Positions 2,289 through 14,894 of a stretch of DNA of 20,000 nt are shown here, in pieces. Source of the DNA: an uncultured virus (IMG/VR IMGVR_UViG_3300007722_002942) (taxonomy: Duplodnaviria; Heunggongvirae; Uroviricota; Caudoviricetes); IMG/VR virus record IMGVR_UViG_3300007722_002942. One strand, 5' to 3'. The number at the start of each line of letters is the position of its first letter. Position 1 is the stretch's first letter. The notes under the pieces were generated by a model. That model was not told the origin of the DNA, made no database searches, and was given only the letters and a program-made list of their open reading frames with translations. The translations under genes were made by a program, and so were the position numbers.

Positions 2289-4556
2289 ATGCCCATAAGA
2301 ATGATAGTAGGAGATAGTTCTGAAAAGGGAAAAAAAAGATTAACAGCCTCTTCTGGAGCTTTTAATAAAGATGCAGTTAAGCCAATATCTGGTAAAAATA
2401 TACCTTACGCAAAGACATCTGTATCTTTTACTCCTATAACTAAAAATTCTCAGTTTGCAGGTTCGGCTGCAAATAGTATTTTTACACAGCCCATGTTCTT
2501 TTCTCCAATGCATACGCCACAAAACTGGCAGATTGCATCTAAGAGGAGAGAGATCTATCAGTGGTCGAGATTCTATTACGAAAATGAACCAAAAGTTGCC
2601 GCCGGTGTAGATTTTTACGCTGGTTTTCCGATGAATGGTTTCAAATTAGAATGTAAATCTAAACAAATATTAGAGTATTATGAGCAGGCTGTAGAAGATC
2701 TAGATTTGGCAGACTGGGTTGGTCATATAAGTCATGAGTATTTTCTTATTGGAGATGTATTTCCATTTTTAGAAATAGGATGTCCTGAATGTGAAGGCAA
2801 AAATCCAAAATGTAATCATCCTGGAGGATATTTTAAATCTATTAGACTTATGAATCCTGATTACATAGAAGTTCAAGATAGTGTTTTGGCTGACCAGCCA
2901 TCTATAGCTATGGTTCCTGATGAAGAACTTAGAATGCTAGTTCAAAGAAGAGAGCCTAAGAAGATTTATGACAAACTTCCTAGAGAATTGATAGAGATGG
3001 TTTCAACTGGAAAGCCAGTTCCATTATCTAATAGAAGTATAAGCCATCTGAAATATAACGGTAGTGCCTACGGTGTATACGGGACATCCATGTTACGTAG
3101 GTTATTTACTATACTTGCATATAAAACAAAGTTAATGACAGCTAACTGGATTGTTGCAGAAAGACTTATTCTTCCTGTAAGAGTTGTTAAGGTTGGAGAT
3201 AAGGATCGTCCTGCGAGTGAGGAAGATTTGGCTGATGTTGCAAACCAGCTAGCAGCGGTTGTTAATGATCCTAACTTATCTATTATTACCCATCATGCTT
3301 TTGAGTACGAGTGGTTCGGAGCTAGTGGCAAGATACATAATCTTACAAATGAGATGGAAGAAATAGGAAAAGAAATTCTAGATGGGTTGATGTTAAACCA
3401 GTCTCTTTTAAACGGAGAAATGCCTGGCTATAATTCGGCACAGGTTGGTGTTGAGATTATGATTCGCAGAGTTGAGAATTGGAGAAATAAGCTTTCTAAA
3501 TGGGTAGAAAATAAGATATTTAAACCTATTGCTATGATGCAGGGATTTGTTGACGAGGAAAGATCGGCAAATCTTGGAAAAACTGTTTATATGTATCCAA
3601 CCGTCAAGTGGAATGATTTGCGACTCAGAGATAAAACAAATTGGGTACAGCTTCTTATGCAGGGTTACGATAAGGGTATGGTATCTCTACAGACGGTACT
3701 TGAAGAAATGAATCTTGATTACGATGTTGAAATTGAAAGACGTAGAGAGGAAACAATGGTTACTTCTGCTACTGGACAAGCTATGCCAGGAGGTCCAGGA
3801 GGCGGAGCAGGAGCTCCTATGGGTGGCGGACCAGGTGGTGGACCACCTCCGGGAGGCCCTATGGGTGGAGATCCAGGAATGCCTCCCCCACCAGGTCCAG
3901 AAGCAGGCGGCGCTCCTCCAGGAGGAGATATGGGAGCAGGCGGAGCACCAGGTGGAGCTCCAGGAATGGGAGCTGCTGCTGGAATTGGTATGAATCCAGG
4001 AGAGTCCGGACCTCCTCCAAAGGTTATGAAAAAAGGTAAATCATCCAAGGATGAAGTTGAAGCACCTGCTCCTAGGATATTCAAGCTTACAAAGCTAGAA
4101 CAAAAGATGAAGAAAATGCTTGAGACTATGGATATTCCATATACTATGTTTGGTCAATACGAAATTAAGATGCCTGGACATCCTCAGCCATTTCTTTTAG
4201 ATTTTGCATATCCAAAAATAGGAGTTGGAATAGAAACAGATGGTGCTATATGGCATGAGAGAGCAGATTTAAAAGCAAGAGATAAGCAAAGAGATCAGAT
4301 ATTGGCAAATGTAGGATGGAGAGTTTTAAGATTTAGTGAGCAAGCTATAAATGAGCATATGGATGTTATTAGAGATATAGTTTCTAAAAATATAGCAGAA
4401 GCTGCTAGAACTAGAAAAAAGGCTGAATCTGAGAATATTATTACAAAAAATGCATCTGTTTCTTCATTTGTTGAAGATAATTTAGAGGAATTTCATGTTA
4501 CCAGAGATGAATTAGATAATGGTATGGGGTATCGTCTTATTATAAGTCATAAATAA
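2289..4556 (+). CDS. Phage portal protein with Gly/Pro-rich linker and C-terminal DUF559/Vsr-like PD-(D/E)xK nuclease domain
   Basis: Portal-like segments (ENEPKVAAGVDFY, EYFLIGDVF, LMNPDYIEV, ISHLK..YGTSMLRR) and position upstream of protease and capsid genes. C-terminus LDFAYPKIGVGIETDGAIWH..RDKQRDQILANVGWRVLRF matches the DUF559 pattern. Confidence 0.82.
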   Translation: MPIRMIVGDSSEKGKKRLTASSGAFNKDAVKPISGKNIPYAKTSVSFTPITKNSQFAGSAANSIFTQPMFFSPMHTPQNWQIASKRREIYQWSRFYYENEPKVAAGVDFYAGFPMNGFKLECKSKQILEYYEQAVEDLDLADWVGHISHEYFLIGDVFPFLEIGCPECEGKNPKCNHPGGYFKSIRLMNPDYIEVQDSVLADQPSIAMVPDEELRMLVQRREPKKIYDKLPRELIEMVSTGKPVPLSNRSISHLKYNGSAYGVYGTSMLRRLFTILAYKTKLMTANWIVAERLILPVRVVKVGDKDRPASEEDLADVANQLAAVVNDPNLSIITHHAFEYEWFGASGKIHNLTNEMEEIGKEILDGLMLNQSLLNGEMPGYNSAQVGVEIMIRRVENWRNKLSKWVENKIFKPIAMMQGFVDEERSANLGKTVYMYPTVKWNDLRLRDKTNWVQLLMQGYDKGMVSLQTVLEEMNLDYDVEIERRREETMVTSATGQAMPGGPGGGAGAPMGGGPGGGPPPGGPMGGDPGMPPPPGPEAGGAPPGGDMGAGGAPGGAPGMGAAAGIGMNPGESGPPPKVMKKGKSSKDEVEAPAPRIFKLTKLEQKMKKMLETMDIPYTMFGQYEIKMPGHPQPFLLDFAYPKIGVGIETDGAIWHERADLKARDKQRDQILANVGWRVLRFSEQAINEHMDVIRDIVSKNIAEAARTRKKAESENIITKNASVSSFVEDNLEEFHVTRDELDNGMGYRLIISHK

Positions 4557-12016: not shown

Positions 12017-12889
12017 ATGAGTCTTGCAAAAAATGGTCTTTCTGACCAAGAAAAAGAAATGGTAATCGCTCAGGCTTTGGAAACAGATGAAGGTCGTACC
12101 GCTCTAGCCCAGGCTATGGTTGAGCCAATCCGTCGCTCGCTTGAGTATCAGGCAGTAGGTCGTAAGCTTCTTATGGTTGACGAGTTGCCACAGGGCGCAC
12201 TCGCTCGCTATGAGAGAGATATAGCTTCTATCGCTCATGTTATCGGACGTAGAGGTGCTGTACCTGACCAGATCGTAGAAGGCGAAGAAATTCTTGTTCC
12301 AACATTTGAAATTGCTGCTAACCCAACAATTCGTTTGTCGGAAATCAAGGCTCGTCGTTTCTACATCGTTGATAGAGCTCAGATTAAGGCTAAAGAAGCT
12401 ATCCAGAAGGAAGAGGATACCAATATTTTCAACGCACTTATTGCTGCCGCTGATACCAGAGGCGATCAAGTAGTTGCTAACATAGGTACTTTGACAACTG
12501 CATCCTTAAACACAGCATTCCGCTTGATCGAACAGCATGACTTAGTTGCCGCTAAGATCGTTCTTCATGCTAATCAGTATGCAACAATCAGAGCTTTCGG
12601 TAAGGATTTCTACGATGAGGCAACAACCCGCGAAATCATCACCACTGGCCTCTACGGACACCTTTGGACTGCTGATATTCACGTATCATCTCGTATGGAT
12701 TCTACAACTGTTCTTGTTGTAGCTTCCGCTGAGAACGTAGGTGCGTTCCCAATTCGTCAGGATATAACAGTTCTTCCTGCTGACGATCCAAAGAAGCTTC
12801 GTCTTGGTTGGGTTATTTATGAAGAAATTGGAATTGTAGTAGTAAATGATTACGCTATCAGCAAAATCGAAGTAACTTCCGCTACCTAA
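12017..12889 (+). CDS. Major capsid protein, HK97 fold (compact, encapsulin-sized, 290 aa)
   Basis: Strong SD AGGAG; HK97-like pattern (IRRSLEYQAVGRKLL, E-loop, long spine helix AQIKAKEAIQKEEDTNIFNAL, IVLH, GHLWTADIHVS, terminal GIVVVNDYAISKIEV). Frequent CGT Arg codons, and followed by a terminator. Confidence 0.88.
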   Translation: MSLAKNGLSDQEKEMVIAQALETDEGRTALAQAMVEPIRRSLEYQAVGRKLLMVDELPQGALARYERDIASIAHVIGRRGAVPDQIVEGEEILVPTFEIAANPTIRLSEIKARRFYIVDRAQIKAKEAIQKEEDTNIFNALIAAADTRGDQVVANIGTLTTASLNTAFRLIEQHDLVAAKIVLHANQYATIRAFGKDFYDEATTREIITTGLYGHLWTADIHVSSRMDSTTVLVVASAENVGAFPIRQDITVLPADDPKKLRLGWVIYEEIGIVVVNDYAISKIEVTSAT

Positions 12890-12916
12890 TAATTAAATAA
12901 CTGCGTTTTTACGCTG

Positions 12917-12953
12917 AAAAGTCCATCTGGAAACAGGTGGGCTTTTTATTTTT
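12917..12953 (+). terminator. Rho-independent terminator after the capsid gene
   Basis: AAAAGTCCATCTG-GAAA-CAGGTGGGCTTTT hairpin (GNRA loop, G-U pairs) followed by a T-rich tract. Confidence 0.85.
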
Positions 12954-13114
12954 AAAATATGATTTCAGTCATCCTTTCTAAAATAACACTAGAAAAAGAA
13001 GGTTTTGATCCTCAGAAAATAGGATATCAGAAAAAACATAAAAAAGTGAATAATACTACAGTAGAATTATAAATTATATTTCTATTATTGTAAATATCTT
13101 AAAAAGGAAATAAT

Positions 13115-13792
13115 ATGAATCTGTTAAGAAGGTATTTTGTATCAGCTATTGGTTCGTTATGTCTCTTGCCTAGTAGGATATTTTCATCTATCTTTACAGA
13201 ATATGCTGTTGCGGTAGTTCCTGAAATTGCAGTAGCACAAAAATTAGGAAAATTTCCATTTTACATAGACGAGTGGACGAATCTTGAAATAGAAGAAGGA
13301 TTGAATTATGATAATAGAATTCATATGAATGAATCTATATCTAATTATATAGACAGATTTTTAGAAAAGAATTCTATTTATAGAAAATATTTAACTCATC
13401 TTCCTCTTGAAGAAGATGTAATTCCTAATGTTGAAATGAAACCAGGATATGATTCATATTGTATTCATGAAAACAGAATAGATATTTTCAGAGAAGGTCA
13501 GTTAATGTTCATGCCTAAGAATAAAGTAGTATTACGTACGAAAGTAGGACTTAGTTATTTCAAATACGGAAGAAAAAAAGTAATAATAAGATTGGTAGAT
13601 ATTATATGTAATTCATTTTTGGAAAAAGAAAAATCCATGATAAAATATTTTTTCCAAGAAACTAATACTAGAGAAATAAAAACAGGATATAGATGGTTTG
13701 AAAAAGTAACTGTTTTAATAGATGATGAGTATGAAAATTTAGGGTTTTTGGCATTTTATAGGGATTCTATTGGAATAACTGAGGCCATTTAA
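13115..13792 (+). CDS. Divergent, internally deleted paralogue of the major capsid protein with N-terminal twin-arginine-like segment
   Basis: By-eye alignment to the MCP: IDRFLEKNSIYRKYL/IRRSLEYQAVGRKLL, REGQLMFMP/VEGEEILVP, VTVLIDDE..LGF..IGI/ITVLPADD..LGW..IGI. SD AAGGA upstream. Confidence 0.65.
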   Translation: MNLLRRYFVSAIGSLCLLPSRIFSSIFTEYAVAVVPEIAVAQKLGKFPFYIDEWTNLEIEEGLNYDNRIHMNESISNYIDRFLEKNSIYRKYLTHLPLEEDVIPNVEMKPGYDSYCIHENRIDIFREGQLMFMPKNKVVLRTKVGLSYFKYGRKKVIIRLVDIICNSFLEKEKSMIKYFFQETNTREIKTGYRWFEKVTVLIDDEYENLGFLAFYRDSIGITEAI

Positions 13793-13846
13793 TGAGAATT
13801 TCAAGACGTATAAGGACTATCTGTAATAGTGACATCATAAGTTCTA

Positions 13847-13872
13847 AAAGGAATATGCAGATTATTATATAA
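13847..13872 (+). promoter_or_regulatory. Putative promoter AAAGG-N17-ATAA, 9 nt before ATG 13882
   Basis: Recurring motif; no SD between the motif and the ATG. Confidence 0.6.
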
Positions 13873-13881
13873 ATTAATTTT

Positions 13882-14118
13882 ATGAATTGGTATAAAACAT
13901 CTCAAAAAGTCGTTCAATTTTCAAGATGGGACACATCCGGGACTTTAGTTATACTTATAGATGGTAAAAGATATGAGTATTCTGGAGTTCCCCAACACCA
14001 ATCATCATATATAAGGCTTTTAATTAATAAGAAAAATTTGACGAGATTGTTTCCAATTTTGAAATCTCTTAAAATGGTAGATACTAAGCCTGATGAATCT
14101 CAGCTGTCATTATTTTAA
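13882..14118 (+). CDS. KTSC-like small protein with MNWYK leader and C-terminal beta-clamp-binding motif QLSLF
   Basis: WDTSGTLVILIDGKRYEYSGVP resembles the KTSC pattern (Yd..L.v.F..G..Y.Y.gVP). The last five residues match the QL[SD]LF consensus exactly. Confidence 0.65.
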   Translation: MNWYKTSQKVVQFSRWDTSGTLVILIDGKRYEYSGVPQHQSSYIRLLINKKNLTRLFPILKSLKMVDTKPDESQLSLF

Positions 14119-14153
14119 TCGTATCCAGACGAGTATAATCTAGGTCTATCTAA

Positions 14154-14894
14154 TTATATCCACTTTATACCTTTCTCATCTTCCTCATCAGTTTCGATTG
14201 GTATAACTCTAGGTCTATTTCTAGCTTTATAAATTTTTTCTGCGTATTCTCTTTCCTGTCTTAATTGTTCTTCCCTTCGAGATTTGTAATCTTCATAACT
14301 TTGTTGAGGCTGAGCAGGTCGAGCAGGTTGAGTAGGTCGAGCAGGTCGAGCAGGTTGCGTAGGTTGAGTAGGTTGAGTAGGTTGAGTAGGTTGAGTAGAT
14401 TGAGTAGATTGAGTAGATTGAGTAGATTGAGCAGGTTGAGTAGGTCGAGTAGGTCGAGCAGGTTGAGTAGATTGAGCAGGTTGAGCAGGTTGAGCAGGTT
14501 GAGAAGCAGTTATATTACTCAGTACTTGAAAATTATGTATTCTACCCAGATCACCGTAATCAGTACTTTGGATCTGAATAGTTTTATCTCTACGAACGTC
14601 GGATACTCTAGCTTTTAATTCAGGATATTTCGGAGTTGCTTTTCCTAATCCGGATTTTGTATATGTTATAATGTCTCCAATATCAACTTTAATATCAGGT
14701 GGAAAGGGGCGAGTTTCATTACTTAATACCTGTTCAGGAACTAATTTCAACTGTCTACGGCTATAATCTCTTACATTTACTGATCCATCTTCATCGATAC
14801 TAATAGCCTCTGCTTTTTCGTTAGGGAATCTCATTGTGAATGTTACAGTGTCTCCTTTATTGACTCTATTAGCGTATTTTTTAAACCAATTCAT
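14154..14894 (-). CDS. Hypothetical protein with two tandem SH3/KOW-like domains, a 21x tripeptide linker and charged tail
   Basis: MNWFKKYA leader; two units starting VNKGDTVTF and VDIGDIITY, both ending QVLSN; promoter motif directly upstream. Confidence 0.7.
   Translation of the reverse strand: MNWFKKYANRVNKGDTVTFTMRFPNEKAEAISIDEDGSVNVRDYSRRQLKLVPEQVLSNETRPFPPDIKVDIGDIITYTKSGLGKATPKYPELKARVSDVRRDKTIQIQSTDYGDLGRIHNFQVLSNITASQPAQPAQPAQSTQPARPTRPTQPAQSTQSTQSTQSTQPTQPTQPTQPTQPARPARPTQPARPAQPQQSYEDYKSRREEQLRQEREYAEKIYKARNRPRVIPIETDEEDEKGIKWI
14311..14499 (+). repeat. 9-bp minisatellite, 21 units (consensus YGAGYAGRT), encoding PAQ/PTQ/STQ/PAR on the minus strand
   Basis: Read directly; 189 bp, frame-preserving. 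Confidence 0.95.

Follow-up and report, generated by a model that had tools for sequence, protein, structure and literature searches.

A strongly diverged, probable partial copy of the major capsid protein gene in a giant relative of Bacillus phage G

An open reading frame (ORF) of 225 codons, designated P0001, lies downstream of the major capsid protein (MCP) gene of an uncultured tailed phage. A first-pass annotation described it as a second, degenerate capsid protein copy that lacks the A-domain region and carries a leader resembling a twin-arginine (Tat) signal. The locus raises the question of whether P0001 was derived from a capsid protein and, if so, what a phage might gain from it. The window referred to below is the whole 20,000-nucleotide stretch of DNA that was analyzed. 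We conclude that P0001 is an intact, strongly diverged accessory gene, old and fast-evolving, that is very probably a partial copy of an MCP of the phage-G type.

The gene and its surroundings

The window covers the head module of a large tailed phage, a giant relative of Bacillus phage G (Table 1). The window MCP scored above the NF042927 cut-off. It is 55% identical to gp27 of Bacillus phage G, for which a structure is available (PDB 6WKK), and 70-89% identical to its best 80 IMG/VR relatives, which are found on contigs of up to 548 kb. MCPs of this clade are conserved at 70-99%. The candidate decoration gene upstream had no family match. The stretch was found in freshwater, microbial-mat, sediment, and aquatic metagenomes, with 9 of 21 rows containing at least half of its words. 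Among the matches listed, only two were RNA runs with the stretch, at a share of 0.05.

Table 1. Features of the window, with coordinates, strand, and basis of assignment
Feature	Position	Strand	Basis or remark
Portal gene	head module		phrog_16240
Protease-containing protein, 2,053 aa	head module		
Probable capsid decoration gene, 197 aa	11327..11920	+	place of phage G gp26; gene order only
MCP, phage-G type, HK97 fold	12017..12889	+	phrog_2522, E 1e-65
Intrinsic-terminator-like hairpin after MCP	12915-12948	+	only such site in 12700-14200
Stub of deleted 524-aa DUF7487/nuclease-like gene	12965..13038	+	74 nt left; comparison with sister strains
Ribosome-binding site AAGGA	13104..13108	+	6 nt before P0001 ATG
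P0001, 225-aa ORF, probable diverged partial MCP paralogue	13115..13792	+	stop-free frame, codon-position GC, intact allele
P0001 residues 1-40, degenerate RR-x-F leader and hydrophobic stretch	13115..13234	+	sequence, hydropathy
P0001 residues 52-175, probable homologue of MCP ~10-135	13268..13639	+	BLASTP, shuffles, profiles
P0001 residues 176-225, weak match to MCP C-terminal P-domain hairpin	13640..13789	+	register ambiguous

P0001 was confirmed as a real ORF. The probability of such an open frame arising by chance at its base composition is about 1e-10, and GC content falls from the first codon position to the third (GC1>GC2>GC3), as in other genes. It lies past the terminator, as first annotated. 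It is also, as had been noted, much more AT-rich than the MCP gene (GC of 27.7% versus 44.4%), but this is not special. Five other downstream accessory ORFs have a GC content of 26-31%, and thus the AT-richness of P0001 is ordinary for the accessory genes of this phage.

The frame and the ribosome-binding site are intact in the window, in strain L095, and in run X6. The L095 gene is a 99% allele that differs from the window by two nonsynonymous and zero synonymous changes, one of which is A31D in the hydrophobic stretch. The X6 contig has no difference over the whole of P0001 and 11 differences in the next gene, a contrast that points to mosaic exchange rather than selection.

Orthologue searches of a set of 5.8 billion sequences, 1.84 billion representatives, and IMG/VR recovered only P0001 itself or the 99% allele. 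INPHARED yielded no orthologue (one chance match, E=9), and neither did 39 related records or PDB sequences. A search of the ESM Atlas gave no match at 0.9 or above and none to a capsid. Among 160 loci with a G-type MCP, 111 of which had at least 2.5 kb of downstream sequence, counterparts were found in the same species only. P0001 thus appears, from these collections, to be confined to one phage species, represented by near-identical strains.

Comparison with near-identical strains revealed that the region between the MCP terminator and P0001 was once longer. In L094 and L095 it holds a gene for a 524-aa DUF7487/nuclease-like protein (L095:1152-2723), and in L095 P0001 starts about 75 nt past the stop of that gene. 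Two deletions distinguish the window from this form: one of 99 nt, lying between short TCAGT repeats, removed the start of the nuclease-like gene, and one of about 1.47 kb removed body sequence as far as the stop. Loose ends in runs X5 and X10 also show the long form, and similar DUF7487/nuclease-like genes follow the MCP gene in L097, L098, and L101. A promoter-like motif, AGG(A/T)-N17/18-GAA, which resembles sigma-H-type promoters, is enriched ahead of conserved phage genes with M-N-W starts (17 of 79, versus 224 of 3,961). Sites are found upstream of window positions 14894 (-), 14996, and 19507 and of L095:1152. The best site (score of 17, above all 600 controls) sits in the 99 nt deleted from the window, and no clear site was found within 100 nt of the P0001 start (score of 2.3). 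P0001 may have been cotranscribed behind the inserted nuclease gene.

Several other features of these genomes were recorded. The C-terminus of the portal (window 4060-4400) has a DUF559/REase-like domain behind a Gly/Pro-rich linker. A 246-aa ORF (window 14154-14894, -) contains a long Q-P-(A/T) tandem repeat (14300-14500) of variable length; the ORF is 240 aa in strain L095. Starts of the form M-(N/S)-W-(Y/F/W)-K are common to many unrelated ORFs (69 in 2.0 Mb, including a helicase-like gene), with three in the window at 13882, 14894 (-), and 14996, and are possibly a head-loading tag. The MCP genes of L093 (G027:34711-36743) and L074 are each interrupted, close to the N-terminus, by an insertion that contains a nuclease-like ORF and is likely an intron.

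Relation to the major capsid protein

Residues 52-175 of P0001 can be aligned with the MCP of the same phage with 27 of 124 aligned residues identical (about 22%). BLASTP aligned residues 52-173 with MCP 10-133 (27/125 identities, E=0.002). The by-eye alignment of residues 71-180 in the first-pass annotation holds 22 of the 27 identities but has two short gaps rather than the one it described. Shuffling supported the match: in pairwise local alignment with three matrices 0-2 of 2000 shuffles reached the observed score (z of 4.5-6.4), and in global mode 0-41 of 2000 did. When P0001 was compared with 12 single MCPs, five aligned over the same N-terminal stretch with 0/500 shuffles reaching the score, and seven gave nothing. 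The z values of the five were 6.4 for its own MCP, 10.7 for L024, which had been picked beforehand as the best match of an earlier profile search, 7.7 for phage G, 4.2 for LR745208, and 4.2 for RSL1.

Profiles became more sensitive as they became more diverse. A profile of 81 close MCPs matched P0001 at P=0.005 and missed it at E<10 among 8,103 ORFs. A profile of 21 diverse MCPs gave P=3.4e-5 (0/1000 shuffles), and in a search of 5,391 ORFs taken from 2.0 Mb of relatives this paralogue-free profile assigned P0001 E=0.18. Addition of three long natural paralogues (L085, L263, and L262), which had themselves been found by MCP searches, gave P=3e-7 (0/1000 shuffles), with P0001 69-170 aligned to profile positions 28-131. 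With this widened profile P0001 ranked second among non-MCP matches in the 5,391 ORFs (E=0.0016), and among 28,100 six-frame ORFs (E=0.0089) only evident capsid pieces ranked above it. A profile of two paralogues alone, with no true MCP, still gave 10.3 bits (0/1000 shuffles). On P0001, four MCP profiles and the profile of paralogues alone each scored above 998-1000 of 1000 shuffles. Profiles with the A-domain deleted gave P values of 2.5e-8 and 6.7e-10; they were cut after the alignment had been seen and are not counted as tests.

The curated models phrog_2522, NF042927, and Pfam gave no match to P0001; NF042927, a full-length MCP model with a cut-off of 80 bits, gave none at E<=1. Profile-profile comparison with the MCP did not recover the relation either (hhalign probability of 0.9%). 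P0001 keeps 21 of 84 clade-invariant MCP positions and has changed the other 63, and of 37 deeply conserved positions it keeps 9 and has lost 28. We consider it very probable, from the profile evidence, that P0001 residues ~52-175 and the N-terminal half of the MCP are distantly homologous. By HK97 anatomy the matched region, MCP ~10-135, presumably comprises the N-arm helices, the E-loop, the following P-domain strand, and most of the spine helix.

Structure prediction could not show a similarity to the HK97 fold. AlphaFold models had a pLDDT of 31.7 for P0001 alone and 36.0 with N-half MCP rows, and Foldseek found no fold match with either. The order of helices and strands in these low-confidence models fits an HK97 P-domain, the second model having been fed MCP rows. 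Both models draw a hairpin at residues 197-202/209-214, a region for which the alignment supplied only two MCP residues, both misplaced. Because none of the curated families, hhalign, AlphaFold, or Foldseek detected the relation, the HK97 fold of P0001 remains putative.

Sequence comparison agreed with the claim that most of the middle of the MCP is missing from P0001. There was no signal against MCP 146-242 (470 and 623 of 1000 shuffles reached the score), and only 50 P0001 residues remain after the spine-helix match. The ~100-residue middle of the MCP is, we assume from HK97 anatomy, the A-domain. The missing middle is consistent with loss of the A-domain from P0001, and an architecture without an A-domain is reasonably likely.

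The C-terminus was also said to align with the MCP end, for which there is a modest signal; the register, however, is ambiguous. The scores of the last 50 residues were reached by 1-5 of 1000 shuffles against MCP 243-290 and by 2-18 of 1000 against MCP 146-290. HMMER placed P0001 182-204 on MCP ~257-277 (ungapped score of 15.2 for 184-204), whereas BLAST placed 177-217 on MCP 196-249. The first-pass register, reproduced by MAFFT, places 197-222 on MCP 249-274 as blocks scoring 9.4, 9.3, and 10.3 with two gaps, and by topology it would be the register expected from clean removal of the A-domain. An MCP copy from which the A-domain was deleted and in which the C-terminal hairpin was kept would likely yield a P-domain/E-loop mini-protein.

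P0001 also contains an 18-nt in-frame repeat (window 13433-13450 and 13673-13690, 89% identical, 80 codons apart) that joins codons 107-112 and 187-192. It may be due to chance, and by chance it could feed the HMMER register of the C-terminus.

The leader and other capsid-derived genes

The case for a Tat-like leader is weak. R5-R6-Y7-F8 is encoded at 13127-13138 and is followed by a hydrophobic stretch (13-residue Kyte-Doolittle (KD) mean of 1.75 from residue 8), but TIGR01409 and PF10518 do not match, with nothing at E<=10. The curated test is strict because only two of eight related phage leaders pass a cut-off. On two profiles of ten related RR-x-F phage leaders P0001 scored 3.4-4.1 bits and ranked 10 and 35 of 2,991 N-termini; the ten leaders themselves scored 6.6-29 bits in leave-one-out comparisons, so P0001 is below all of them. 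A leader with RR-x-F and a hydrophobic stretch is uncommon, as only 3 of the 2,375 ORFs with a length of 100 aa or more in the 2.0-Mb set have one, P0001 included. Tat export of P0001 is unsupported. Membrane association is possible, and the leader may be an eroded member of the RR-x-F class or a plain membrane anchor.

A survey by whole-record searches, 50 records each, revealed further paralogues, and the capsid lineage of phage G appears from these sequences to shed them often. In two G-type phages a DNA-binding-like N-terminal domain is fused to a whole diverged MCP (L085:1474-2577 and L263:1002-2231, -). N-arm and C-terminal MCP scraps occur in L086, L087, and L270. In phages like Tunturi_5, RR-x-F leaders are fused to short MCP pieces (L264, L267, L269, L375, L386, and L092), which vary among N-arm, P-strand, and A-domain. 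In 400 kb of Tunturi_5-like phages, MCP pieces were detected at P<1e-3 in six of eight distinct RR-x-F ORFs (10 rows before removal of 2 duplicates); four of the six were earlier matches around which regions had been chosen. One of these genes, L092:1434-1724 (-), is identical to PP885688.1 gp172, that is, gp172 of the cultured phage Tunturi_5 (XOB77615.1), where it is annotated as hypothetical; the host of Tunturi_5 is known and belongs to the Acidobacteriota. In the G-type group none of the three RR-x-F ORFs near an MCP or paralogue shows a capsid piece (L098, L104, which is partial, and L174).

A conserved ~275-aa protein with an internal copy of the MCP N-arm (MCP ~5-46) was observed in L088:1673-2497 (-), L089, and L091. 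The copy is perhaps a capsid-binding or scaffold motif.

In a tree of the N-terminal half (26 rows; L074 left out as truncated), P0001 has a branch length of 2.27 changes per site and groups with L263 and L085 (support of 82/94, unstarred); its composition was flagged as biased. Shared derived residues gave no support for a special kinship with these DNA-binding fusions, as there was no excess of them (2 versus 1.6 and 1 versus 0.9 expected). Descent of P0001 from the adjacent MCP is compatible with the tree (p-AU of 0.21 and 0.38); no DNA similarity between the two genes remains.

Possible roles and known systems

The A-domain forms the centers of hexons and pentons, as described in bioRxiv 10.64898/2026.01.04.697583; therefore, the P0001 product should not build shells. 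If P0001 is without an A-domain, it would form neither hexons nor pentons and would not serve as a shell subunit, and it probably cannot build shells. The long branch of P0001 together with its open frame argues for long past selection for something other than shells.

The explanation that we tentatively favor is that the product is a nonvirion capsid mimic. Its hydrophobic RR-F leader would tether it to the inner membrane rather than export it, and in the infected cell it might bind host sensors without triggering them. It is proven that bacterial immunity can be triggered by capsid proteins (PMC9712102; bioRxiv 10.64898/2026.01.04.697583), and because MCPs of the clade are conserved at the levels given above, they are too constrained for mutational escape. 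Dispensable, fast-evolving partial capsid copies would offer a neat way past capsid sensing. The bound sensors might be host proteins that recognize nascent capsid protein by its P-domain sheet and spine helix; CapRel has been modeled to bind these elements (PMC9712102). P0001 could not act as a decoy for Avs7, Avs8, and Avs10 because these bind the A-domain (bioRxiv 10.64898/2026.01.04.697583), which P0001 appears to lack. The loss of most deeply conserved MCP positions is poor for a mimic, and the A31D change in the L095 hydrophobic stretch and the weak leader score count against a tethered one. We regard the mechanism as a whole as tentative.

An extension of this idea is that fusions of Tat-type leaders to pieces of a phage's own capsid protein have arisen repeatedly across lineages. 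In this view P0001, which would form a P-domain, is the longest such fusion of the phage-G group, and by displaying a copy of self at the membrane it would disarm either immunity that senses capsids or the head assembly of competitors. This generalization is speculative and in our view unlikely to hold in full. P0001 alone is a weak witness for a class of capsid mimics. No paper on leader-fused or A-domain-less phage capsid paralogues was found in the literature searched, as far as its accessible text goes; supplementary gene tables may annotate such genes. The accessible text of PMC12484599 does not contain "paralog," "twin-arginine," or "signal peptide," and a term search of that of PMC11924767 found no mention of gp172 or twin-arginine. 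Antidefense by a membrane-displayed capsid self-mimic was likewise not found in the accessible portions of the literature searched.

P0001 might instead be a relic in decay, a once-useful paralogue that now drifts, its leader eroded and its function lost. The nonsynonymous nature of both differences from L095, including A31D, is what decay would produce, although two changes are too few to measure selection. The loss of the best promoter-like site of the unit with the 99-nt deletion and the restriction of the gene to one phage species point the same way. However, the frame and ribosome-binding site are intact in all three sources, and neutral drift over about 2.3 changes per site would have introduced stops. 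Decay is a rather unlikely explanation.

Another explanation is that the leader is the working part, inserting into the membrane or occupying the host Tat machinery, and that the capsid half is a captured scaffold with a new noncapsid function. RR-x-F leaders of this lineage do carry different MCP pieces or none detectable, and most conserved MCP residues are gone from P0001. Yet the P0001 leader scores lowest of the set and matches neither curated model, and we consider a leader-driven role unlikely.

A role in assembly, as a minor head component, a procapsid membrane anchor, or a dominant-negative subunit that poisons the heads of competing phages, is quite unlikely. P0001 comes directly after the decoration-MCP gene pair and keeps the N-arm and E-loop region, which in HK97 makes intersubunit contacts. 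However, it is past the terminator, 63 of 84 clade-invariant positions are changed, and none of the 160 G-type MCP loci has a counterpart outside the same species even though the MCP itself is well conserved.

It is improbable that P0001 is an unrelated AT-rich ORFan whose helix/strand pattern resembles the MCP by chance, as the negative curated, profile-profile, language-model, and structure searches, the biased composition, and the weak pairwise E values might suggest, because all four MCP profiles and the paralogue-only profile outscored nearly all shuffles, only evident capsid pieces outrank P0001 among real ORFs of relatives, and the alignment is collinear over 124 columns with two short gaps.

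As a probable partial MCP copy, P0001 can be compared with several known systems. It resembles the phage-G-type MCP (gp27, PDB 6WKK; phrog_2522; NF042927) in residues 52-175 and weakly at the C-terminus, but differs in its low identity (about 22%), the absence of the middle ~100 residues, and the added hydrophobic leader. The T4 vertex protein gp24, a paralogue of gp23, is likewise a second, diverged capsid-derived gene near the MCP gene. In contrast to P0001, which is truncated and confined to one species, gp24 is a conserved, full-length protein that retains the A-domain and forms pentons. Tat signal peptides (TIGR01409, PF10518) share with P0001 an N-terminal RR-x-F followed by hydrophobic residues. 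The Tat consensus is S/T-R-R-x-F-L-K, with polar residues at the two places where P0001 has Leu before RR and Tyr after it, and P0001 matches neither model. The L085 and L263 DNA-binding fusions are, like P0001, fast-evolving MCP paralogues, and their profile matches P0001. They keep the A-domain, which P0001 appears to lack, and the profile of their N-terminal ribbon-helix-helix-like domain did not match P0001 residues 1-55. The Tunturi_5-like mini-genes of leader plus capsid piece are like P0001 in design and share its capsid lineage. The mini-genes differ from P0001 in having pieces of 30-90 residues and clearer leaders, one of which passes TIGR01409, and their sequence link with P0001 is through the MCP alone. 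Tunturi_5 gp172 offers this design in a cultured phage whose Acidobacteriota host is known, so that the class can be tested.
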